Shown: piece by piece, positions 8,503 through 25,386 of the stretch
Numbering within the stretch: position 1 is the first letter of the stretch
Layout of the letters: each line of letters begins with the position of its first letter
Assembly (NCBI GenBank): GCA_016933575.1
Contig: JAFGAR010000040.1
Coordinates: 32,001-96,000, forward strand
DNA: 64,000 nucleotides
Reading direction: 5' to 3'
DNA from: Candidatus Thorarchaeota archaeon
GTDB lineage: Archaea > Asgardarchaeota > Thorarchaeia > Thorarchaeales > Thorarchaeaceae
Notes under the pieces: generated by a model
What the model was told of the DNA's origin: nothing
What the model saw: the letters and a program-made list of their open reading frames with translations, nothing else
Database searches by the model: none
Translations under genes and position numbers: made by a program

Positions 8503-9315
8503 CTATAAAACTAGATTCTCATCCATAGCGCCAGTCCGGTATCCCCGAAGATCAAGTGTAACATAGGTGAAACCTACCTTTCTTGCAATCTGCTCTATTT
8601 GATTCAATTTTGTGATATCAAACATAAGATTCAATTCGTCTTCACCCACTTCAATACGAACAAGGTTTCCATGATATCTCGCTCGGACACATCTGACACC
8701 AAAAATATCAACAACTGCTTGTTCTACAGTGTCTACCATTCTCAACCGATCTAGGTCTATCTTAGTTCCGTAAGGAAATCTAGTTGCGAGACAAGCCATT
8801 GATGGTTTATCTGCAACAGATAGACCTCTCTCCCGTGCATATTCTCTTATTTCCTCTTTAGTAATCGCCGCATTAAGAAATGGTGATTGAACTCCTGACT
8901 CCTCAAGTGCTTTTAATCCCGGTCGATACCCCTCTGTTTCACTTGAGGTGGTTCCTTCAACAACGATGTCTAAACCCATACTCCTCGCAGTTTCTATCCA
9001 CATGCTGGCAAGTATCTGCTTACACGAATAGCATCTGTCTGCCCTATTTGCAGCTAGTCCTTCATATGATAACCAGTCTAAATCCTTCATTATAAGGTCT
9101 AGTCCAAGTCTCTCAGCAATTGATATAGCACTGGCTACTTCTCTCTCTGGAACAGTAGCACTTGTAATTGTCAATAGAGTAGTCCTAGCAGCAGTTTCAC
9201 TCACAACACTTGCGAGAACTGTACTGTCGACTCCTCCACTAAATGCGACTAAAACATTCTTTCCAGATAGTTTCTCTCTAATTGCGTCGAATTTATTCCT
9301 TGTCCGATCTTTCAT
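8503..9315 (-). CDS. larE: LarE-like ATP-dependent sulfur transferase (PP-loop)
   Basis: AFSGGVDS, RCYSCK, RPG, KPSMACLATRFPYG, LDLRGYRTGAM. Confidence 0.85.
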   Translation of the reverse strand: MKDRTRNKFDAIREKLSGKNVLVAFSGGVDSTVLASVVSETAARTTLLTITSATVPEREVASAISIAERLGLDLIMKDLDWLSYEGLAANRADRCYSCKQILASMWIETARSMGLDIVVEGTTSSETEGYRPGLKALEESGVQSPFLNAAITKEEIREYARERGLSVADKPSMACLATRFPYGTKIDLDRLRMVDTVEQAVVDIFGVRCVRARYHGNLVRIEVGEDELNLMFDITKLNQIEQIARKVGFTYVTLDLRGYRTGAMDENLVL

Positions 9316-9366: not shown

Positions 9367-11208
9367 TTAGCTTGACATATAGGGATCCTCATCGATGTCA
9401 ATGTCTGCATATCCTGCATCTCTAAGAAGATTTTCAATTGGTTCCGCTCCTGTGATCCAAGAGATTTTCCATGTGTTATCTTCCTGCAGTCGTAATTCCA
9501 CATCCGGCAGGTCTCCAAGTAAATTATGGTCCATCTCAATAGCATCTTGATAGGCACCAACGAGTGGGAGAATAAAATAAGAACTTGGAATATTTTCTAA
9601 CACTCCAATTGGTATTCCCTCTCCCATCTTTCCTCCCGGCATTGTAAGGGGTCTATTATCCTCGGAGAACCATATTTTTTCCGTATTTTGCATATAGAAG
9701 TTTGAGATTTCACCATCAGAATCACAAGTGATATCGACCAGTCTTACCGTTGTCTGAGGATGTTTCTGCAAATCTCTTGTTGGGATGACAGGGAAATGTT
9801 GCTGAACTAGTACATAATCTGCAATGCTGTTGAATACACTAAAGTTCCCAATAACAATGTGCTCAGGATACCAGAAACTTCGGGCCAGTCGATCAGAATG
9901 ATATGAATCAAGTTTCATCTCTCTCAATCGTGATCTGACCGTTCTCTCAAGATTACCAATCACCATCTCTTTCTCGAAGATAAAACCAAGCCCTGCAAGT
10001 GTCATACCACCAAAGTACTCATGGAAGTCGTTCCAGATATCAACCATATGATCCAAGGAAGTGGCTTTATCGATCCTGTCCAAATACTCTCGTTCTTTTT
10101 CTAGGGTACTCTCGGTTTCATATCTCCCGCTTCCTGTCGGAAATACTGATCTGACTTCAAGTGCTTGAACCACGATGAGTGCAGCAAGTGCTGTAACTCC
10201 TCGACCCGACTCAATCATGATGTTCGGCTCTGGTTGTCTATTGTGGTCTTCCTTCAACTGCTCCTTGATACCACTGACAATATTCCTTGCATATTGAAGC
10301 ATCAAATCGGGTGGATATGCACTCTTGTAGTCTATGGCGAGACCTCCGCCAAAATCAATAGCATCAAGTCTAGACAGTCCCATTTCCCGTAGTTCAGAAT
10401 ATATCTTTGTCATGAATCTACCAAATCTGGTAAAGGCCTCAATATTCGTTATTTGAGATCCAGCATGTCCTAGAATTGTCCGAACAGAACCAGCGAATCC
10501 AGTCTGTTTAAGCAAATCAACTACATTGTACAGGTCATGGATGCTTAATCCAAATTTAGAATCACGGCCTGTTGAATGTGACCAATGGCCTTCAACACTG
10601 AGGTATGGTTTGATTCGAAGAACAAGGTTCGTATTCTCGGCTTTGAAATACTTCGTTACTAATTGAGCTTCATGTATTGACTCGATAGAAATAGCTATGT
10701 CATAACCATCATCAAGACATTCTTGAATCAGTCTAAGATATTCAGGATCTTTAGCACCATTACAGATGATATGTCGATGCTTCTCATGCTTTGTGACTGC
10801 CTTGATAAGTTGTAACTCTGCCTTCGTGCCTGCCTCAAGACCATATTCAAAGTCCGACCTAAGAACTGCAGTCACGAAGTCACTTCTTTGATTGACTTTG
10901 ACTGGATAGATACCAATGAATTCACCAGAGTAGGCCAATTCTTTAAAGGCCAAATCAAAGGTGGTTCGTATTTTTTTTATCTGATAGGTAATTAGTTGAG
11001 GGATTCGTAAAGTGAAACTAGAAGTGTAACCTACTTGATTTCCATTCATGGATTTGACCGTATCAATAACATCTTGCAACGTGATTCTTTGATCACCAAG
11101 TTTTATGTATAGGTCTCCATTATCTGTTATATCTAAGAAATGTAGGTCATTTCTATCAATACCAAATACGGTCTTTGATTTATCAACTGACCAAGGGTGC
11201 TCTATCAT
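9367..11208 (-). CDS. speA: Biosynthetic PLP-dependent arginine decarboxylase (bacterial SpeA type)
   Basis: YPVKVNQ, GLEAGTKAEL, CNGAKD, KFGL, HAGSQI, DFGGGL, ESGR, DITCDSDG, GAYQD...HNLLG. Confidence 0.9.
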   Translation of the reverse strand: MIEHPWSVDKSKTVFGIDRNDLHFLDITDNGDLYIKLGDQRITLQDVIDTVKSMNGNQVGYTSSFTLRIPQLITYQIKKIRTTFDLAFKELAYSGEFIGIYPVKVNQRSDFVTAVLRSDFEYGLEAGTKAELQLIKAVTKHEKHRHIICNGAKDPEYLRLIQECLDDGYDIAISIESIHEAQLVTKYFKAENTNLVLRIKPYLSVEGHWSHSTGRDSKFGLSIHDLYNVVDLLKQTGFAGSVRTILGHAGSQITNIEAFTRFGRFMTKIYSELREMGLSRLDAIDFGGGLAIDYKSAYPPDLMLQYARNIVSGIKEQLKEDHNRQPEPNIMIESGRGVTALAALIVVQALEVRSVFPTGSGRYETESTLEKEREYLDRIDKATSLDHMVDIWNDFHEYFGGMTLAGLGFIFEKEMVIGNLERTVRSRLREMKLDSYHSDRLARSFWYPEHIVIGNFSVFNSIADYVLVQQHFPVIPTRDLQKHPQTTVRLVDITCDSDGEISNFYMQNTEKIWFSEDNRPLTMPGGKMGEGIPIGVLENIPSSYFILPLVGAYQDAIEMDHNLLGDLPDVELRLQEDNTWKISWITGAEPIENLLRDAGYADIDIDEDPYMSS

Positions 11209-11240: not shown

Positions 11241-12707
11241 CTAGACATCCTCATCCTCTTTTATCGAATCTAACATTCCTTGGAATGCTCGAGCTAATTC
11301 ACCAATCTCATCGTCTTTTGAGATATATGATTGGTCAACTTGTAGGTCTTGAGTATCTAAGGGTTGTTCCCTGATTCTTGCTGCAGCATTTCTGGTAGCT
11401 AAATCCATAAGATATTGTAATGGCCGAGTGATTGTGTTAGCAATTGATACTGCGACGATTCCTGCTACAATAATTCCTCCAATCGTTGCAAAGAGGATGA
11501 ATGTTGCAGCTTGAGCATTTGTGTCTGCAATTCTTTGCTCGAGTGGTGGAATTGCTTCTAGAACTTCATCTAGAGGAACTGATATGATGCAGATGTAGTC
11601 TCCTTTTCCTACTGGTGTGTAAACCAGAATTCGCTCAGAACCATCTCTAGTGTATCTGAGAGTTCCTGATGTACCTGGTATTGTTATTGTATCAATCTGC
11701 GCTTGGGTCAATGCAACACTGCTGTCCGAATTGTCTTCAACATCGATTAGATCGGGTAACCCCGAGATGTAGGCATTATCCGGCACTTCAGGATGAGCGA
11801 CTACTCCTCCATTTGCATCAAGTAGGAACGCATAGCCTGTTTCAAGAACACTAACATCGATTACCTTCTCACGAATGTCCTCTATAGTGATGTCACCTGA
11901 GATGACAGCACGTCTCTGACCATTCCAGGACACAGCTTTTCCAATGGATATCAGTAAGACATTGTCGAACTCGTCATAATAAGGCTCAACAAAGACAGTT
12001 TCTCCATTGCCTGCCCAGATATCAAGATACCAGTCTTCGCCTCGTGGATTATAGGGATCTGATCCTCTATCTGCATCAGTACCCGCAAATATACTGCCAG
12101 GATAATTGATGAAGAGACCATCATCTGCAAAGGCTATGTATAACCAGCGAAATTCCAACTGATCATGGATTGCTCTGAAGATGAAGTCCATATTCGATAC
12201 ACGACCCAATTTGTCTGCATTCGTTGTTTCGTATGTTAGATAGTTTGTTGAATCAGTACCCGCAGTATACCAACTACTGTAGGTCCATGATACATTGAGA
12301 CCATAGTTAGCATCATACACATTATCTGCAGGGTCTGGTGCTACTGAATCATTCTCGAACAAGTAGTCATAGTAGACTTCTCTATTTGCATAAGTCGAGC
12401 TTGGATCAAAAAGAGCTTCCAGTTCCTTTGCTGCTGCTTCTATCATACCCTGTGCGCTTGTAAGTTTCTGATTGATGACTTGGGCAGTTTTCTGAGCTGT
12501 TAGATCCATGTTCGTTTGAATCTGAGTTTCTAATGCTAGAGAACTCTCGTCTCTTGTAAAGGTTCCAATGATATCAACAAAGGTTAATGATATGATTCCA
12601 GTTGCTGAGAGCGATACAAACGATATCACCAAGAAGGTGAGAATGACGTTTGTTCGAAATTTTCCCTTTTTCTTTGTTTGAGTTGTTTGTGCCATGTTCT
12701 CCTTCAC
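11241..12707 (-). CDS. TM-dCache_1-TM-HAMP membrane sensor with no output domain
   Basis: Two TM helices; WLYIAF...INYPG...YNPRGEDWY...EPYYD...SGDI; GYAFLLD..G.VVAHP; HAMP ITRPL...DEIGELARAFQGML, then stop. Confidence 0.85.
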   Translation of the reverse strand: MKENMAQTTQTKKKGKFRTNVILTFLVISFVSLSATGIISLTFVDIIGTFTRDESSLALETQIQTNMDLTAQKTAQVINQKLTSAQGMIEAAAKELEALFDPSSTYANREVYYDYLFENDSVAPDPADNVYDANYGLNVSWTYSSWYTAGTDSTNYLTYETTNADKLGRVSNMDFIFRAIHDQLEFRWLYIAFADDGLFINYPGSIFAGTDADRGSDPYNPRGEDWYLDIWAGNGETVFVEPYYDEFDNVLLISIGKAVSWNGQRRAVISGDITIEDIREKVIDVSVLETGYAFLLDANGGVVAHPEVPDNAYISGLPDLIDVEDNSDSSVALTQAQIDTITIPGTSGTLRYTRDGSERILVYTPVGKGDYICIISVPLDEVLEAIPPLEQRIADTNAQAATFILFATIGGIIVAGIVAVSIANTITRPLQYLMDLATRNAAARIREQPLDTQDLQVDQSYISKDDEIGELARAFQGMLDSIKEDEDV

Positions 12708-12711
12708 CTCC

Positions 12712-15567
12712 CTAGTAATCTACAGTTGTTCCTCCCACTTCTAGTTGTGCCATTAGAACACCTATCCTATCAAAGGCTTTCTCGATGTCCATCCTCACAT
12801 CAATACTGTCCACGACTGAGAGATATTGACCTTGGGGGATATTCTCACAGATAGACTCAAGGAGTTCTTCAGTTGTCATTTGTTTTCCAGTCTTCTTGGA
12901 GCGGACTCGTTTTTCAACCGCTGCTTTCAGCTCCTGTCCCACTCCAATGACTATGAGATTCACATCAAGATGATTATCCCGAATGAATCCTTCAATGGTT
13001 AGTGGTCGGTTTCTCATCAGACGGTCTTTCTCCGTGAGAATACCCTTCAGAACATCTAGCGAGTATGTATCCGAACTATTGTCTTGACCATCCGTAAGAG
13101 CAATGACCCATCTGTGTTCACTTGACTCTATTTTATTGAGTTCTTCAAGTGCTCTACCAAGTGCATCGTAGAAGGCTGTTGCATAATTTGGATACTTTAA
13201 TGCACTAAGCGCTTTGAAGATAGGACTGTCTTCTTCATCATATTCTCCTTTTAATGTAAGGGGTAGAATTTCACGATACGATGAATTGAATATGATTATT
13301 GAAACAGAGTCCTGTGGATTGACTTGACTACGGATGATTTCCATAGCTCCATTGACGGCCGCCTTGATTCTCTGTTGTGCTTGCATACTTCCTGAATAGT
13401 CAATTACCAAAGTCACGCTCTTCTTGTAAAGAATCGAGCGTCTGAGTTTCTCAGCTTTTCTTCGCACATCATGACTTGGTTTATTCAACTGGTCGAGAAC
13501 ATCTGCAAGTTTTTGCATAGCAAAGACAACAAGCCACATCTCATCTGTTGATTCCGCAAAAGAGATAGCCTGGTTATAAGCATCTTCTGCTTTTCGCCAA
13601 TGTCCTTGGACTTGGTATAGTTGACCTTCATGATACTTGATGTAAGCCAAGCTTCTCTCATAACCAATAGATTTGGCAGTCTTCTTTGCTTCATCAAAAC
13701 GTGACTGTGCTTGACTATATCTGCCATCTCTCATGAATACAAGACCCATGGCATCATATCGTCTCGCAAGACCATAGGAATTCTTCAAAGTGAGGTCGAT
13801 AGCTTGGGCATCTTCAAGAAGTTTCATCGATTTCTCAACATTGCCTCTATCCATCTCAACGAGTGCCATATTATGATAGATAGAAGATATCCTCATCATT
13901 GCATCTTTCTCACTTCCACCTTCTTCCTTTGTCTTCTCCAATAATCTATTAGCAATGTCAAGCGATTGTTCATAATAGTCCATGGCATTTCCAGGGTCGC
14001 CTCGTTGTCTGAACACGTTGCCAATATTCAGTAGCATTGTTTGTTCACCGACATCAATCATGAGTCTTCGACTTATCTCGAGAAGATTCTGATAGTTAGC
14101 AAGAGCTCTTCTAAGGTCTCCACGGATAAATGCCTCATTTCCAAATCGCATGGCCTCTTGGAAACTTAGCAATGCATCGACCGTTGTTCCAACCTCTTCA
14201 TACATCGCGCCTGCAGTTGTCACACCTCTTGTGAAATCTTGACGTGACATCTTGTTTACTAGTCGAGTCATCTCAGATATTGGTTCAACAATTGCACGCC
14301 CTCTTCGTCTTGATACACTGAACACTACAGCTGATACTCCGGCAAGGATACCTCCAAGTACTGCAGTAAGAATTAGAGTTCTTGTAGCTACAAGATTGAG
14401 GATATTCGTTGCAGGTCCGATGACATCTGAGTCTGGAACAACAACTACCAGAATATAGTCTGTGCCTTCTATTTGAGCAAAAGAGAGATGCCAAGTACTG
14501 CTCTGTTTCTGATAGGTCAACAGTCCTGCTTCATCTACTAGGACATGGCTTGTCAAAAGACTATGGAATGCAGTAGCTTCCGCACTACCAGATGATCCAA
14601 ACTCAAGGGTTTCAATCGATGCAACTTCTTCATCGAGAGCCTGATCTTTATGTGCCACTACGTTGCCAGCTGTATCAAGCATGAAGGCATAGCCATTTGA
14701 TAACACATTGAGGTTTAGTACTCTATCAAGAATTGTAGCCATGGTCACATCTGCAGAAACAACACCGATGAGGGATCCATTGTCAAATCTTACAGGTCTT
14801 CCCATAGATATGACCAATCCCACAGGATCGACATAGGGAGCTGTGAGAATCACCTGGTCATTGCTAGGAGCAATTGAGGCCACATTGGTATACCACTCCT
14901 GAGCATTTGCATCATAATCAAGCCCTGGCCCATCATAATCTAGAAAATAACTAAGGTCGTCAAAAGGATAGTTCTTGAAAAGGTGTTGATCTGAAACCGC
15001 TAAATCGTATCCCATGTACAACCACTTGTAATCATTGTTCATCTCATGAAGTGCTTTGAAAATGTTAATCATATTTGAAGAATAATCCAAGGCAACTTGT
15101 GTACTGGATGAAAAATCGTGAGGATCATTATTGTTCCATTCTGATCTTGGAATGAAATAGCAGTCAGCTGCAAATGAGATGTATTCTGATTCGTATGCTT
15201 CGACTATTGCATCATCGGTTTCAAATGTTCCAAGCAAGTCTGACCAATGCGGTTCTTCATTAATGTCCCAATAATAGCTATATTGCGGGGAGGCAGAAAT
15301 TCTACCATTAAACAAATCCTCACAATAAGCCTCCATCATAAACACACCATCGACATAGCTTTGCCATCGCTCTCCGATGAAGAGAGCTGTGTCATTGGAT
15401 AGCCTCTGGAGGTTTGCTAATTCCTCAGATTTGAGAGCCTCCGCTGCATCTCCTGCATTAGCATTTGCAACGGTGAAAATCTCACCCATTGATAATGCGG
15501 ATATCGCTAGCATTGGAACCAAAGCAACGACGATGAATGTGACTACTATTCTCTTTGAGATGTCCAT
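12712..15567 (-). CDS. TM-dCache_1-TM-HAMP-TPR-vWA membrane receptor
   Basis: Cache motifs (QEWY, APYVD, GVVSADV, GYAFMLD), HAMP, about 5-6 TPRs (LLNIGNVFRQRGDPGNAMDYYEQSL), vWA MIDAS DYSGS/TAFYDAL/LTDGQD. Confidence 0.85.
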   Translation of the reverse strand: MDISKRIVVTFIVVALVPMLAISALSMGEIFTVANANAGDAAEALKSEELANLQRLSNDTALFIGERWQSYVDGVFMMEAYCEDLFNGRISASPQYSYYWDINEEPHWSDLLGTFETDDAIVEAYESEYISFAADCYFIPRSEWNNNDPHDFSSSTQVALDYSSNMINIFKALHEMNNDYKWLYMGYDLAVSDQHLFKNYPFDDLSYFLDYDGPGLDYDANAQEWYTNVASIAPSNDQVILTAPYVDPVGLVISMGRPVRFDNGSLIGVVSADVTMATILDRVLNLNVLSNGYAFMLDTAGNVVAHKDQALDEEVASIETLEFGSSGSAEATAFHSLLTSHVLVDEAGLLTYQKQSSTWHLSFAQIEGTDYILVVVVPDSDVIGPATNILNLVATRTLILTAVLGGILAGVSAVVFSVSRRRGRAIVEPISEMTRLVNKMSRQDFTRGVTTAGAMYEEVGTTVDALLSFQEAMRFGNEAFIRGDLRRALANYQNLLEISRRLMIDVGEQTMLLNIGNVFRQRGDPGNAMDYYEQSLDIANRLLEKTKEEGGSEKDAMMRISSIYHNMALVEMDRGNVEKSMKLLEDAQAIDLTLKNSYGLARRYDAMGLVFMRDGRYSQAQSRFDEAKKTAKSIGYERSLAYIKYHEGQLYQVQGHWRKAEDAYNQAISFAESTDEMWLVVFAMQKLADVLDQLNKPSHDVRRKAEKLRRSILYKKSVTLVIDYSGSMQAQQRIKAAVNGAMEIIRSQVNPQDSVSIIIFNSSYREILPLTLKGEYDEEDSPIFKALSALKYPNYATAFYDALGRALEELNKIESSEHRWVIALTDGQDNSSDTYSLDVLKGILTEKDRLMRNRPLTIEGFIRDNHLDVNLIVIGVGQELKAAVEKRVRSKKTGKQMTTEELLESICENIPQGQYLSVVDSIDVRMDIEKAFDRIGVLMAQLEVGGTTVDY

Positions 15568-15634: not shown

Positions 15635-17080
15635 CTACCTTGCTTGTGCGTTTAATTCCTCTATCAATTTCTCTGTAAAATCCCGTAGGTCCATTTTTTC
15701 ATCCAGGATGAATAGGTCTCCTTCAAGTGTCCCTTTGACTGCACCTTCACCCAGAAGTATGATGAGAGTCCTACGAAGTATTCGTCGATCAACTCCAGTT
15801 TCTCTCTCCATCCGAGAAACATCAACACTGTCAGTTCCTTGCAATAGACTATAAAGTGTAGAACGTATCTTCGAAATATCTTGCTCCTGAAGTTTCCTTA
15901 TTCCTTTGAGTTTCTTGGTTTCTGTCCGTACAAATGTACTTCCATCAATATGTCCATCAATATCATTACACTGTATCATTGCCTGTAGACTACGGCGTAG
16001 ATTATAGGCAGCAGGTCTTGGAAGCGTTTTTCTGAGGATTCGATCAAGCTCCTTCAACTTGATTATATTATGCTTAGACGTGATAGAATCGATACTCTCT
16101 TGGATATATTCCTCAATGACATACTCCTCTATCATCTGGAGAGCTGCACCGCATGCACTGCATTTTGCGGCCTCTGGCGAGGTAGGAGCCCCACAATTCC
16201 CACATTTTATCGCTCTTCTATAGAGTATCTCCTTTGTCGAACCTATTTGTTGAAGAATCACCTGTTCAGTCCTGCTTGCTTTTCCTGTCTGTCCGATTTC
16301 CCAAAAACTAAGTTTCCTATCCTTTGTACTGACCACGAGATATGCAATATCGGAGATGTCATCTGGTACTCCTGTCGCCATTGCTCTTGGGATGTCGCCA
16401 ATATCTATTCGAGTTACTTCATTTCCATCAATATCCCAGACTCTAAGTGTCGGTGATAGGTCTCCGGTAACGAAGAGAGTTCTCTTTTCGAAAGATAGAA
16501 CTGCAAACACCATGATTCTATCACCGAGCTGGAGTTCTCGTAGTTGATAACCAGCAGCTGTCAAAATCGTAATCTTTCCGGTCTTGTCTGCAATAACCGT
16601 TTCAAGCTCTGTATCGTGTGTGATATCTTCTAGCCAGACATCAGCAATTGGCTGGTCGACATTTCTTGTGAAGATTGTATCCTTATCATCATTGTAAAGA
16701 ACTACTCTATTGTTTTCCAGTGCGACCACAACTTCTGCAGCATCATCCCCATCGATGTCTCGTGCATCACAGGCAATCACATCGCTCTCAAGTCGGATGT
16801 TCCAAACTGTACTTCCTCTATGGTCAACAACAAGTACTTTTTTGCCAACCCCGCCAACAAGAGAATCTGTTCCCTCTCCTTCAACATCTGCAACAGCGAT
16901 ACATCTGACCTTACTCGACCATTTTCTGGTGCTTGTGAGTGTACCCTTCGCATCGAAAACTCTTAGTCTATCTCCATAATCAAGGGAGAATACCTGTGTA
17001 CTTGAATCTCTTCGTTGTCTTACATAGACCGAATATACATTTGCAGCAATAGGTACACTTGCAACAGCGCGAATCTTCAA
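15635..17080 (-). CDS. FG-GAP-like beta-propeller + double Zn ribbon + two PCI-like winged helices
   Basis: DVEGEGTDSL, DIDGDDAAEV, DITHDTELET repeats; CGNC...CSAC; LQAMIQCNDIDGHID and LIILLGEGAVKGTLEG. Confidence 0.65.
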   Translation of the reverse strand: MKIRAVASVPIAANVYSVYVRQRRDSSTQVFSLDYGDRLRVFDAKGTLTSTRKWSSKVRCIAVADVEGEGTDSLVGGVGKKVLVVDHRGSTVWNIRLESDVIACDARDIDGDDAAEVVVALENNRVVLYNDDKDTIFTRNVDQPIADVWLEDITHDTELETVIADKTGKITILTAAGYQLRELQLGDRIMVFAVLSFEKRTLFVTGDLSPTLRVWDIDGNEVTRIDIGDIPRAMATGVPDDISDIAYLVVSTKDRKLSFWEIGQTGKASRTEQVILQQIGSTKEILYRRAIKCGNCGAPTSPEAAKCSACGAALQMIEEYVIEEYIQESIDSITSKHNIIKLKELDRILRKTLPRPAAYNLRRSLQAMIQCNDIDGHIDGSTFVRTETKKLKGIRKLQEQDISKIRSTLYSLLQGTDSVDVSRMERETGVDRRILRRTLIILLGEGAVKGTLEGDLFILDEKMDLRDFTEKLIEELNAQAR

Positions 17081-17147: not shown

Positions 17148-18227
17148 ATGATGACAAACTCCGGTCAATGTAGAATTGGCTTCCTCTGGAGTCCACTCCT
17201 AGAAACATTTGATTTCGGACGAAAGCATCCTATTCGAGTAGGCCGATTCAAACTACTACGAGACTTTGTAGATGAAGTTGGATTTCTAGATCTTCCGAAT
17301 GTTGAAGTCATTACCCCTGAACTTCTATCTGAAGATCTTTTAAAAACCATTCACTCGGAGGAATATATCGCAAAAGTCCAACAGATTTCTGAAACAGGAA
17401 TTGGTGATATTGATATAGATACTCCGGGATTCAGAAATATTTACTTCAATTCTCGAATTGTATCTGGAGCTTCAGTTACTGGGATTAAATCAGTGCAGTC
17501 TGGACTGGTAGATCACTTTGTTTCCCCAACTGGTGGCTTCCATCACGCCAAGTTTGGCGCTGGTGGCGGCTTTTGTATTTTCAATGATATTGCTGCTTGT
17601 GTTTATGAACTGAAGAATCAGGGAATCAAAAGAGTGCTAATAGCCGATTTTGATGTTCACCATGGCAACGGTACACAGACCTATTTCTATAATGATCCCG
17701 AAGTAATGCAGATCTCATTTCATGAGGACCCTGAATGGATGTTTCCACATGATGGATACATTCAGGATATTGGAGAAGGCTCTGGTCGTGGATACAATAT
17801 CAATATGCCTTTTCCAATGGACTCGGGAGATGCTGTCTATCGCTATGCTTTTGATGAATTGATCCCCCCATTAGTTGACTCCTATCAACCTGAGTTTATC
17901 ATCTTTATACCTGGTTTTGATGCTCACTACAAAGATCGTCTTGCTCATCTCACTCTAACAACTGACATGATACGATACATCGCATCTACAATCCATGATT
18001 TCGCTCATGAATACAGTTCTGGAAAATTAGGTGTCGTCACTGGTGGCGGTTATCACCATGAATCTCTCTGTTGGGGTCTTGGTACGGTTATGTCTGTTCT
18101 CTCTGGCTTGGACTTTGAACCACCCCCACAGCAACCACCATTTGATGATAATGAAGAAACTTGGGAAGAAGTAAAAAATAATGTGGCTCTCGTGAAAGAC
18201 CTCATCTTTCCAATTTTCAATCTCTGA
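17148..18227 (+). CDS. Histone deacetylase family (AcuC/acetylpolyamine amidohydrolase-like)
   Basis: GGFHHA, GFCIFND, DFDVHHGNGTQ, GFDAHYKD, GGGY. Confidence 0.92.
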   Translation: MMTNSGQCRIGFLWSPLLETFDFGRKHPIRVGRFKLLRDFVDEVGFLDLPNVEVITPELLSEDLLKTIHSEEYIAKVQQISETGIGDIDIDTPGFRNIYFNSRIVSGASVTGIKSVQSGLVDHFVSPTGGFHHAKFGAGGGFCIFNDIAACVYELKNQGIKRVLIADFDVHHGNGTQTYFYNDPEVMQISFHEDPEWMFPHDGYIQDIGEGSGRGYNINMPFPMDSGDAVYRYAFDELIPPLVDSYQPEFIIFIPGFDAHYKDRLAHLTLTTDMIRYIASTIHDFAHEYSSGKLGVVTGGGYHHESLCWGLGTVMSVLSGLDFEPPPQQPPFDDNEETWEEVKNNVALVKDLIFPIFNL

Positions 18228-23835: not shown

Positions 23836-23919
23836 TTATTCTTGAAAAATCGAAAAGTAATACAATATGATTTAACATATACATCATCATTGAATGTTGC
23901 ATATTGGAGTCTGGTGACT

Positions 23920-25386
23920 ATGCCAACTACTCAGAAAAATCCTAGGAAACGGGAACAGAAAGACAAGTTAACATTGTCCTTGGGTGGCATATTACCATTA
24001 GACGAGGTTTTGCTTGATGCTATTGTGAATGGTTCGCATGAGGGAATAGCTGTAATCGGAGATGACTTCAAGTTACTCTATGTAAACGATCAATGCTGCA
24101 AGGTGTTTGGGGGGACTAGGGATGAGTTAATTGGGTATGATTTTCGACAATTCATCAACGAGGATTCCCTGAAGACTGTCACACAGAGATATCTGCAGAG
24201 GCGTTCGGGAAAGCGAGTTCCAGATACTTATCCCATCCATCTGACGCGAAAGGATGGAAGTACAGTAACGGTTGAAGGTATAGTTGACATTACAACGGCT
24301 CTTGATGGCACTACTCTGACGATTGCACATGTTCTTGATATTACACCAATTCAGAGAGGTCAAGAATTACTTGAACAATCTGAAACAAGATATCAGATAC
24401 TCGTTGAAACGATGAATGATGGTCTGGCTATCGATGACCGAAAGGGGAATATAACATATGCAAACCGAGCATTCTGTCGTATGCTCAACTGCTCTGAAAC
24501 TGATATCATAGGAAAACCATGGGTGAATTTTACAACTAATATTGATGAGGAGAGTATTAAGAGGAAAATTGATGAACGCCGCACAGGCATATCAGAACGC
24601 TATGAACTGACTTGGAAAAGTTCGACTGGCGAGTTAGTACCAACAATTGTTTCTGCAACGCCGCTCTTTGATCGTTCTGGTGATTTTATCGGTACTTTTG
24701 CGATAGTGACAGAGATAACAGCACAAAAAGACGCAGAAGAAACTATTCAATTCTATCTTGACCTTCTATCTCATGATGTTACGAATCAACTGCAGGTCAT
24801 TATGACAAGTAGCGGTCTCTTAGAGGAGGAGGTGCCTCAATCATATATTGCTGATGCTCGAAATGATATACTGGAAGCTGTTGAAAGGTGCAATAGGCTT
24901 ATCACAAAGGTGAAGCGTGCAGCTCAGATTCGGCAGATCCCAATTTCGATCGTGGAACTATCGCAGATTCTTAATGAACGAATTTTAGTTCTTGAGAAGG
25001 TCTACGGTGCAAAAGTGCACCAGCAGGGGATAAAGAAGAAAGTGCTGGTCGAAGCGGATGTTCTACTTGGGGAGCTAATCTGGAACCTCCTTGAGAATGC
25101 AGCACGCCACAATCCAACAGAAAACAAAGAGATTTGGATATCTGTAGAGCCCCTAAAGGATGTAGTCCGGATTGCCATATCAGACAATGGACCTGGATTA
25201 AGTGACTCTCGAAAGACTGTACTCTTTACTGAGCGGAAGCATGGTGGTGGAGTTGGTCTTAGACTCGTGCGTCAGATGATTCGAAAGTATGGTGGTATGA
25301 TTGAAGTTACAGACAGAGTCAAGGACAATCCAAGTGAAGGCTTGAAATTCATAGTCACTCTGAGAAAAACACAGAAATCAAAATAG
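23920..25386 (+). CDS. Soluble PAS-PAS histidine kinase
   Basis: Two PAS domains; H-box LLSHDVTNQL, N-box NLLENAARHN, SDNGPG, GGGVGL. Confidence 0.92.
   Translation: MPTTQKNPRKREQKDKLTLSLGGILPLDEVLLDAIVNGSHEGIAVIGDDFKLLYVNDQCCKVFGGTRDELIGYDFRQFINEDSLKTVTQRYLQRRSGKRVPDTYPIHLTRKDGSTVTVEGIVDITTALDGTTLTIAHVLDITPIQRGQELLEQSETRYQILVETMNDGLAIDDRKGNITYANRAFCRMLNCSETDIIGKPWVNFTTNIDEESIKRKIDERRTGISERYELTWKSSTGELVPTIVSATPLFDRSGDFIGTFAIVTEITAQKDAEETIQFYLDLLSHDVTNQLQVIMTSSGLLEEEVPQSYIADARNDILEAVERCNRLITKVKRAAQIRQIPISIVELSQILNERILVLEKVYGAKVHQQGIKKKVLVEADVLLGELIWNLLENAARHNPTENKEIWISVEPLKDVVRIAISDNGPGLSDSRKTVLFTERKHGGGVGLRLVRQMIRKYGGMIEVTDRVKDNPSEGLKFIVTLRKTQKSK

Follow-up and report, generated by a model that had tools for sequence, protein, structure and literature searches.

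To our knowledge, almost every prokaryotic transmembrane receptor described so far terminates in an enzymatic or a CheA-coupling domain. What, then, is the function of a pair of archaeal receptor genes in which the sensor is followed by neither? The question is raised by a 64,000-nucleotide stretch of a Candidatus Thorarchaeota archaeon (assembly GCA_016933575.1, contig JAFGAR010000040.1, positions 32,001 to 96,000; hereafter the window, to which all coordinates refer), where two adjacent genes, here called LONG (P0001) and SHORT (P0002), each encode a membrane protein with a dCache_1 sensor. We lean, if modestly, toward reading them as complementary subunits of a single heteromeric transmembrane receptor that lacks an enzyme, forms part of a module conserved in Asgard archaea, senses amines and acts by capturing a partner protein; the module appears to be an undescribed way of transmembrane signaling. 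The evidence comes from the architecture of the two proteins, their joint conservation, their natural fusion into single chains, the residues lining their pockets and the genes beside them. The host genome is 85% complete, and all genome-wide absences and statements of “only” given below are scoped to that completeness.

Architecture of the two subunits

The receptor genes and the interval between them are laid out as follows.

12712..15567, minus strand: LONG subunit (P0001, 951 amino acids), with first transmembrane segment (TM1), dCache_1, second transmembrane segment (TM2), divergent HAMP, tetratricopeptide repeats (TPR) and von Willebrand factor A domain (vWA)
11241..12707, minus strand: SHORT subunit (P0002), with TM1, dCache_1, TM2 and, as its last part, a canonical HAMP
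12696..12711, minus strand: probable LONG-SHORT spacer of 16 nt with the Shine-Dalgarno-like GGAGGTGAAGGAG, as read from the sequence

Both subunits are members of Pfam dCache_1, scoring above the gathering cut-off of 45 bits (49.2 bits at residues 197-376 of LONG, 61.8 bits at 171-371 of SHORT) and having the domain flanked by transmembrane segments. Hydropathy gives two such segments per protein (~7-29 and ~393-417 in LONG, ~22-44 and ~400-425 in SHORT), and since basic residues precede TM1 and follow TM2 (RRRGR) in the receptor subunits, the Cache domains are predicted to lie outside the cell and the HAMP, TPR and vWA parts in the cytoplasm. In LONG the extracellular dCache_1 region spans ~40-390 and is followed by a divergent HAMP (~425-470), about eight TPR-like hairpins (457-712; Pfam TPR families at 475-690) and a vWA with a complete metal ion-dependent adhesion site (MIDAS) at 716-944 (Pfam 718-886; VWA 37 bits, VWA_2 47 bits), while SHORT ends behind its HAMP (422-483, 28 bits; cut-off 25). 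No kinase, methyl-accepting chemotaxis protein (MCP), cyclase or phosphatase family was matched in LONG or SHORT by Pfam and NCBIfam. The same holds for their relatives: dCache_1, TPR and VWA were found in 36/36 LONG orthologues, and no catalytic or CheA-coupling domain (kinase, MCP, GGDEF-EAL, PP2C) follows the HAMP in these 36, in 21 SHORT orthologues or in 233 SHORT cluster representatives.

An AlphaFold2 (AF2) model of LONG, built from a 36-sequence alignment, reached a mean predicted local distance difference test score (pLDDT) of 82, with a double-PDC ectodomain at pLDDT 88-95, a long TM2 helix and an alpha/beta vWA over 716-944; searched with Foldseek, it matches Mlp37, PctA and mmHK1S-Z2. 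One unbroken helix (457-481) carries the second HAMP helix, AS2, directly into the first TPR hairpin. The HAMP itself (423-460) has low confidence, as is expected for a dimeric module modeled as a monomer. Pfam matches no HAMP in this LONG protein; a match falls on the same segment in 12 of the 36 LONG orthologues (best E 2.3e-9) and in the orthologue of genome G039, and both P429 (the Pro in AS1) and E458 (the Glu starting AS2) are invariant among orthologues, so that we regard the segment as a divergent HAMP. SHORT, for its part, qualifies as a HAMP protein directly (Pfam HAMP in 18 of 21 diverse orthologues), and LONG does so only through homology. Together the two genes account for the sole dCache_1 domains and the sole Pfam-detectable HAMP of the host genome, which contains about two dozen HATPase_c genes.

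Most of this architecture had been described in a sequence-only reading of the locus: the short protein stopping right after the HAMP, the TPR array and vWA with intact MIDAS placed on the cytoplasmic side, and the lack of a kinase, MCP, cyclase or phosphatase domain were all borne out by the profile scans, the invariant MIDAS residues (see below) and the hydropathy topology. Its description of each protein as TM-dCache_1-TM-HAMP was correct for the sensors, the membrane segments and the HAMP of SHORT, and correct for the HAMP of LONG by homology though not in Pfam. Its two genes “4 bp apart” are indeed co-oriented, but the gap has to be revised. SHORT has 488 amino acids when read from a GTG at 12707 and 484 when read from an ATG at 12695, 12 nt further on; the GTG that gives the 4-nt gap sits within the Shine-Dalgarno-like GGAGGTGAAGGAG (GGAGGTG), and the recorded protein (P0124, 484 amino acids) begins at the ATG. 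To judge by these letters, the true start is probably the ATG, leaving a 16-nt spacer with a Shine-Dalgarno-like site.

The cytoplasmic output of LONG

Conservation of the pocket and MIDAS residues was followed in 37 orthologues of each subunit (24-84% identity). The MIDAS residues D723-x-S725-x-S727, T797 and D826 are invariant in 37/37 LONG orthologues, and they are kept also in AT-rich relatives of giant-virus type and in three of the four fused proteins described below; the fused protein P0341 has the DxSGSM motif and lacks the exact [LI]TDGxDN pattern. With a Pfam match, the DxSxS-T-D residues and an alpha/beta fold in the AF2 model, the domain qualifies as a vWA whose metal binding is predicted. 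In a profile search it was closest to ITIH4 (1.8e-12), followed by CLCA1, CMG2/ANTXR2 and BatB down to 1e-7, with alpha2delta at 6e-3; going by these scores it is a generic ligand-binding MIDAS vWA and not one of alpha2delta type. The TPR array is most like the peptide-binding TPR of LGN/Pins, and Arg474, Asn477, Asn514, Asn517 and Asn566, in TPR1-3, are invariant among LONG orthologues.

The output of the receptor is thus likely to be protein docking, in keeping with the non-enzymatic TPR-vWA output proposed earlier, which is supported by the lack of any enzyme in the orthologues and by the invariant MIDAS. As an idea only, a conserved acidic motif, [VI]-E-[GDA], in the disordered C-terminal tail of LONG could serve as an internal MIDAS ligand.

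Two genes for one probable receptor

In 23 of the genus's 24 genomes, and at about 30% identity in a distant family, SHORT comes after LONG; as an adjacent pair they occur in about 110 of 400 Asgard genomes, in 10 families. When SHORT was used as query against the 400 genomes of the phylum, matches appeared in 118 genomes (10 families), nearly always two per genome: SHORT itself and, next to it, the Cache region of a neighbor of 870-960 aa. Of the 22 fetched loci with both genes, 20 have them separated by 2-16 nt; in L025 the called open reading frames overlap, and in L037 the gap is about 400 nt. No SHORT without LONG was found in the fetched loci except where the locus is cut off by the end of a contig. 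A tree of the sensor-to-HAMP region resolves separate LONG and SHORT clades (SH-aLRT 99) with mirrored branching orders. Genome G100 has a second pair (L042), whose LONG and SHORT each group with family f14, indicating that a pair moves as a unit, be it by inheritance, duplication or transfer.

SHORT is not a truncated kinase or MCP, since its 233 cluster representatives (370-500 aa) consist only of Cache and HAMP and none has an enzymatic output. The sole exception to the plain SHORT layout, in family f12 (L044:293-2290, minus strand), is a protein of 665 aa with a Zn ribbon and HEAT repeats after the HAMP, again non-enzymatic. (The Zn ribbon of this protein recalls that of the separate propeller protein of other lineages, described below.)

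Two further observations go, so far as sequence comparison can tell, beyond simple co-inheritance as evidence for a heteromer. The first is a complementary loss. In the f9/f27 clade (L036, L039, L045), LONG lacks the equivalents of the PctA pocket residues Y144, D146 and D173 and keeps its MIDAS, while the adjacent SHORT retains all pocket residues, so that one subunit can sense without having an output and the other can signal without a recognizable pocket. The second is natural fusion. An exhaustive phmmer search of 1.8 billion representatives yielded four proteins (P0341, P0328, P0375, P0369), each from a different 50% cluster and 1598-1652 aa long, that are SHORT-LONG single chains with four hydrophobic or transmembrane segments each. 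Their N-terminal half is closest to the SHORT clade, nearly end to end (P0375 residues 23-533 against residues 2-465 of the SHORT of L024, E 3e-21). Their C-terminal half aligns with the whole of LONG (E 6e-77) and has the DxSGSM MIDAS motif intact. Such a fusion is topologically feasible, the C-terminus of SHORT and the N-terminus of LONG both being predicted to be cytoplasmic.

Could the two proteins instead be independent homodimeric receptors that merely share an operon, with SHORT acting through its HAMP on another partner such as the propeller protein? Homodimers are the rule among HAMP receptors, both subunits keep a plausible pocket in most lineages (the one studied here included), and the Zn-ribbon and HEAT tail of the f12 SHORT implies that a SHORT can have an output of its own. 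Nevertheless, the existence of SHORT-LONG fusions, the f9/f27 loci in which a LONG with invariant MIDAS has lost the pocket that its SHORT keeps, and the mirrored trees with no SHORT away from LONG (contig-end cuts aside) make two separate homodimers improbable. On the comparative evidence, the pair looks like an obligate two-subunit receptor, and LONG and SHORT probably form one heteromeric receptor. The heteromer proposed in the sequence-only reading is in this way supported, indirectly, by adjacency, mirrored phylogeny, output-less SHORT proteins, complementary pocket loss and fusions; of the tests on which it had staked this, those of co-occurrence and synteny across Asgard genomes and of a truncated kinase or MCP came out in its favor.

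Relatives in giant-virus bins and a eukaryotic set

The pair is found beyond the Asgard genomes. A giant-virus bin (G400; IMG/VR GVMAG-M-3300023179-27, contig 1; L048:7398-11765) has it in reversed order, a SHORT-like protein of 503 aa and then a LONG-like protein of 883 aa; the bin carries capsid genes of nucleocytoplasmic large DNA viruses (NCLDV), on another of its contigs, and no propeller homologue was found in it. Its LONG motif is YDPRCRVWY, the canonical amino-acid motif, and its SHORT motif is YQAKGDLWY, acidic at the Arg position. In the tree the viral LONG and SHORT nest inside the Asgard LONG and SHORT clades, the viral SHORT on a long branch. A related protein on a 650-kb contig is named “VWA Cache recognition domain protein [uncultured virus],” the fused protein P0328 comes from the EukProt eukaryotic set, and one fusion cluster has members of 1613-1615 aa from three sources. 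With P0343, P0337 and P0341 as queries against genome contigs and viral contigs, no related loci were found.

These relatives bear on the likeness to alpha2delta and CACHD1, which combine two dCache_1 domains with a VWA, and of which the locus might hold an archaeal forerunner or direct cousin. Alpha2delta-1 and CACHD1 are among the sequence and fold matches of the ectodomain, fused proteins with two Cache domains and a vWA do exist, one of them in EukProt, and the Pfam family VWA_N (the alpha2delta N-terminal region) matches 4 of 21 SHORT orthologues (best E 2.2e-9). Yet VWA_N is matched in neither P0001 nor P0002, the vWA scores against alpha2delta far behind ITIH4, CLCA1, CMG2 and BatB, and it is predicted to be cytoplasmic behind TM2, HAMP and TPR, of which alpha2delta has neither HAMP nor TPR. 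The virus- and eukaryote-linked relatives, moreover, have the same architecture as the Asgard proteins and branch from within their diversity. A forerunner or direct cousin is on this evidence very unlikely indeed: the likeness drawn in the sequence-only reading stands for the type of Cache ectodomain and falls for the vWA, which differs from the alpha2delta/CACHD1 pattern in both position and kinship.

Ligand pockets

The signature motif of the sensor reads YDANAQEWY in LONG (from 218) and YNPRGEDWY in SHORT (from 219), both aligned to Y121-Y129 of PctA in phmmer alignments. The equivalences are as follows.

PctA Y121: LONG Y218; SHORT Y219
PctA R126: LONG Q223; SHORT E224
PctA W128/Y129: LONG W225/Y226; SHORT W226/Y227
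PctA Y144-x-D146: LONG Y245-V-D247; SHORT Y243-Y-D245
PctA D173: LONG D273; SHORT D272

In PctA, R126 binds the carboxylate of the ligand and Y144 and D173 bind its amino group, and the R126A mutation lowers affinity 61-fold (PMC8915833). Of the five residues of the dCache_1AA motif (Y121, R126, W128, Y144, D173), four are kept in both subunits and R126 is replaced, by Gln223 and Glu224. This replacement is general: at the R126 position LONG has E in 20 of the 37 orthologues, Q in 10 and R in 3, among the SHORT proteins there are 27 with E, 5 with D and 2 with R, the position after it is mostly occupied by D or E, and the aromatic and Asp positions are conserved. Both pockets here keep the amine-binding residues (the Y144, D146 and D173 equivalents) and the aromatic box, and an acidic residue follows the Gln or Glu.

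Amine sensors are known to lose the R126-type Arg (PMC10104139). In TlpQ and McpU, acidic pockets bind polyamines, agmatine and histamine, with a Tyr-x-Asp and a second Asp holding the primary amine (PMC6234866). With Arg exchanged for Glu or Gln and the amine-binding residues retained, the pockets look built for a cationic amine that has no carboxylate; an amine (agmatine, putrescine or another polyamine) is our tentative choice of ligand, read from the pocket residues and held at a little short of even confidence. The earlier reading had seen correctly that the key Arg is lost in both motifs and that the two pockets differ, from each other as from the amino-acid motif; it was incomplete in that the acidic type of replacement and the retention of the amine-binding half point to amines.

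An ordinary dCache_1AA amino-acid sensor of PctA/Mlp type with an unusual tail has to be weighed here. PctA, PctB, PctC, Mlp24 and Mlp37 are among the best solved matches of both ectodomains, the equivalents of Y121, W128, Y129, Y144 and D173 are kept, and the full YDPRxRxWY occurs in family f26, in L042 and in the giant-virus relatives. Set against this are the Gln or Glu, followed by an acidic residue, at the very position whose mutation costs PctA most of its affinity, and the rarity of Arg there among orthologues, which together leave the amino-acid sensor with little probability.

The chemistry of the pocket may follow the gene neighborhood. All loci linked to a SpeA-type decarboxylase gene (see below) have an acidic residue at the R126 position of SHORT, and in the loci of f26, a family that has no SpeA, LONG and SHORT both carry the canonical YDPRxRxWY. 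This is suggestive only, as the SpeA-linked loci form one clade and count as one or two events.

A decarboxylase and a propeller protein in the same module

LONG and SHORT are the inner two of four head-to-tail open reading frames on the minus strand, next to which a fifth gene is divergently oriented.

15635..17080, minus strand: propeller/Zn-ribbon gene (P0004, 481 amino acids), 67 nt upstream of LONG
9367..11208, minus strand: putative SpeA-type arginine decarboxylase, dependent on pyridoxal phosphate (PLP) (P0003, 613 amino acids), 32 nt downstream of SHORT
17148..18227, plus strand: Hist_deacetyl-family gene (359 amino acids), divergent from the propeller gene (Pfam PF00850, 248 bits)

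Outside the genus all flanking genes vary except two, the homologues of P0003 (SpeA type) and P0004 (propeller). The unit of two genes recognized earlier was therefore correct as to the pair and incomplete as to its extent: judged by gene order, the conserved module is the pair plus the SpeA-type decarboxylase and/or the propeller/Zn-ribbon protein.

P0003 has full-length matches to the SpeA structures 3nzp, 3n2o and 3nzq in PDB (E 1e-61 to 2e-50), its homologues conserve the PLP-lysine motif YPVKVNQ, and its NCBIfam scores fall below the cut-offs (NF003763, 352 bits against 369; TIGR01273, 331 bits against 624). We accordingly name it a SpeA-type arginine decarboxylase with arginine as the putative substrate. 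Its one hydrophobic stretch (337-356) appears buried by hydropathy and is unlikely to span the membrane. Homologues are present in 108 of the 400 Asgard genomes (families f1, f5, f12, f14, f18, f19 and f20), with none in families f9, f25, f26 and f27, and in almost every genome with both on one contig the SpeA homologue lies directly beside the pair. P0003 was the one arginine decarboxylase detected in the host genome, and no pyruvoyl arginine decarboxylase was found there, so that P0003 is probably the sole agmatine source of the host, which has two arginase/agmatinase-family genes elsewhere than at this locus.

P0004 homologues adjoin the pair in families f1, f18, f25, f26, f27 and f9. In its AF2 model (pLDDT 87), P0004 starts with a six-bladed propeller (1-263), which is the conserved portion; a helix leads on to a Zn ribbon (291-315), and two winged-helix domains and a terminal helix complete the chain. 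In other lineages Zn ribbons stand at other positions. Hydropathy gives no transmembrane segment, which places the protein in the cytoplasm. Since Foldseek returned BBS2 (first), BBS1, BBS9, ITFG2, NHL and WD40 propellers at nearly equal E (~1e-12), we name it by fold only, with no specific family. Recoding, suggested by “stops inside” many propeller-gene matches, was rejected, the stops being terminal or upstream only.

The Hist_deacetyl gene is kept beside the module only within the Thorarchaeota family (L022-L029, L041). Its Pfam family is one that we take to include acetylpolyamine amidohydrolases, and the gene is possibly related to the module, fitting the polyamine theme. Other neighbors are more local. 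Just downstream of the decarboxylase gene, a gene at 8503-9315 (minus strand) encodes a 270-aa PP-loop ATPase-like protein with weak N-terminal matches to QueC, tRNA_Me_trans and NAD_synthase, and within the genus it holds this position in some genomes but not all (L028, L029). A histidine kinase gene (23842-25386, plus strand; HATPase_c ~25063-25371) lies some 8 kb away from LONG and SHORT, in a neighborhood that is kept within the genus; no link between this kinase and the pair was seen outside the genus. In family f20 the SpeA-type gene is directly followed by another PLP decarboxylase gene, one of the Orn/DAP/Arg family (479 aa; L031:13635-15074, plus strand), and in genome G039 the gene directly upstream of LONG encodes a RING-finger protein of 115 aa (zf-RING_2, E 6e-5; L024:12958-13305, minus strand). 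An AAA+ MoxR gene, as in a MoxR-vWA or ubiquitin-type system, was not found nearby, the RING finger occurring in that one locus only. A defense system was considered and rejected, PADLOC giving only generic TPR matches.

Proposed mechanism and its significance

How might such a receptor signal? LONG and SHORT would each place a dCache_1 sensor outside the cell, where a cationic amine without a carboxylate would bind. Binding would shift TM2 and, with it, a mixed HAMP bundle made from both subunits; the state of the HAMP would then reposition the TPR superhelix and the MIDAS vWA through the continuous AS2-TPR1 helix of LONG. The altered exposure of the TPR groove or the MIDAS face would lead to capture or release of a cytoplasmic client, with no chemical reaction, the best candidate clients being the co-conserved propeller/Zn-ribbon protein and the SpeA-type decarboxylase of the same operon. 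In this manner the cell could match its own agmatine and polyamine synthesis to external amines. Control of SpeA by the receptor is the more doubtful part of this scheme, and we hold it as a possibility below the amine ligand itself.

Another scheme would make the pair a scaffold that holds the decarboxylase and/or the propeller protein at the membrane, the Cache domains being structural or adhesive and no signal being passed. All the cytoplasmic parts are docking domains, and no second-messenger or phosphorylation component is linked to the module, as such a scaffold would have it. But orthologues of 24-84% identity conserve both the residues of the pocket and those of the HAMP signature, which fits ligand-driven signaling, and the pocket chemistry changes along with the gene neighborhood; we think a mere scaffold hardly probable.

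Several points weigh against an amine-sensing heteromer that captures its operon partners. The case for the heteromer is a comparative one, in a class of receptors that are normally homodimers, and plain inheritance within one operon would produce adjacency and co-phylogeny as well; the fused proteins are gene calls from metagenomes or EukProt. The pocket motif may differ in detail from the dCache_1AM motif, shared Asp and aromatic positions alone having been mapped, by way of PctA, and the LONG proteins of L042 and of the giant virus, which sit inside the SpeA-linked clade, have the canonical Arg. As for the partners, contact of the TPR or vWA with SpeA or the propeller protein is hypothetical, a propeller paralogue occurs without the pair in about 12 genomes of family f9, and SpeA too is found without the pair in some genomes.

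If an amine-sensing, partner-capturing heteromer is nonetheless correct, a docking-only output from two different subunits would add to prokaryotic signaling a logic more familiar in eukaryotes (scaffold recruitment, heteromers), and it would do so in the archaeal group closest to them. Archaea need agmatine also for the modification of tRNA-Ile. Were the ligand agmatine or a polyamine, this would be the first candidate archaeal polyamine receptor and an example of direct receptor control over the agmatine-making enzyme. The viral, eukaryote-set and fused relatives make the heteromer idea directly testable, and those from viruses and the eukaryotic set raise the question of gene flow among Asgard archaea, viruses and eukaryotes. 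The boldest version, in which pair, propeller and SpeA constitute a new kinase-free signaling class with direct receptor control of a metabolic enzyme or an adaptor by ligand-gated MIDAS/TPR capture, the receptor being passed as a unit among Asgard archaea, giant viruses and eukaryotes, turned there into a single chain of two Cache domains and a vWA, and a candidate relative of alpha2delta/CACHD1, we consider unlikely as a whole.

Comparison with known systems

No paper on an Asgard Cache/HAMP/TPR/vWA receptor module was found in our literature search, and a 2018 census had archaeal Cache domains almost confined to Methanomicrobia (PMC5847659). The closest counterparts of the sensor half are PctA, PctB and PctC of Pseudomonas aeruginosa and Mlp24 and Mlp37 of Vibrio cholerae, which have the same layout of TM1, double Cache, TM2 and HAMP. 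From the dCache_1AA sensors of PctA type (Gumerov et al., 2022; PMC8915833) the pockets here differ by the Gln or Glu at R126, with the other mapped positions shared. The larger difference lies behind the HAMP: those receptors are single homodimers with MCP and other such outputs, whereas here there are two different subunits, one with TPR and vWA and one with no output at all.

In pocket chemistry the nearer likeness is to TlpQ (P. aeruginosa) and McpU (P. putida; PMC6234866), whose Tyr-x-Asp and second Asp match PY(V/Y)D and D273/D272 of the present pair in an acidic pocket; these are MCPs that feed CheA, and the pair here has no MCP domain. The dCache_1AM motif itself comprises an upstream insertion with an R103/D133 salt bridge, a W155/F188 aromatic sandwich and D235, in PctD numbering (Cerna-Vargas et al., 2023; PMC10104139). 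In archaea it has been reported only from Halobacteriota, and the structure 3LIB, which is counted as dCache_1AM (PMC10104139), is the best solved match of SHORT, over residues 229-395 only.

On the output side, the Bat operon, with its vWA proteins BatA and BatB and its TPR protein BatC, offers the same combination of a membrane-attached MIDAS vWA and TPR with no enzyme; BatB (3ibs) and the Bat-like 4jdu are among the better vWA matches (E 1e-7), and there is a weak NCBIfam match to BatC. Bat proteins have no Cache/HAMP sensor and go with a MoxR ATPase, unlike the pair here, to which no MoxR gene is linked. With alpha2delta and CACHD1 the receptor shares the domain types dCache_1 and VWA and a related Cache subtype, but alpha2delta is wholly extracellular, with its VWA inserted in the first of two nested dCache_1 domains of one chain, and here the vWA is C-terminal.

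For the union of two different subunits there are two parallels. The top Foldseek matches of the LONG model, PDB 9a65 and 9a69, are mixed dCache chemoreceptor pairs of Bacillus subtilis (YvaQ-McpB and McpB-McpC) and thus a possible heteromeric dCache precedent; they are integrative models, of MCPs that each have a full output domain. The GABA-B receptor is a heteromer in which one subunit, GB1, binds the ligand and the other, GB2, signals. Its folds and downstream machinery, those of G-protein-coupled receptors, are unrelated to anything described here; what the two systems share is the division of labor, which is clearest in the f9/f27 loci, where SHORT has kept the pocket and LONG the MIDAS.

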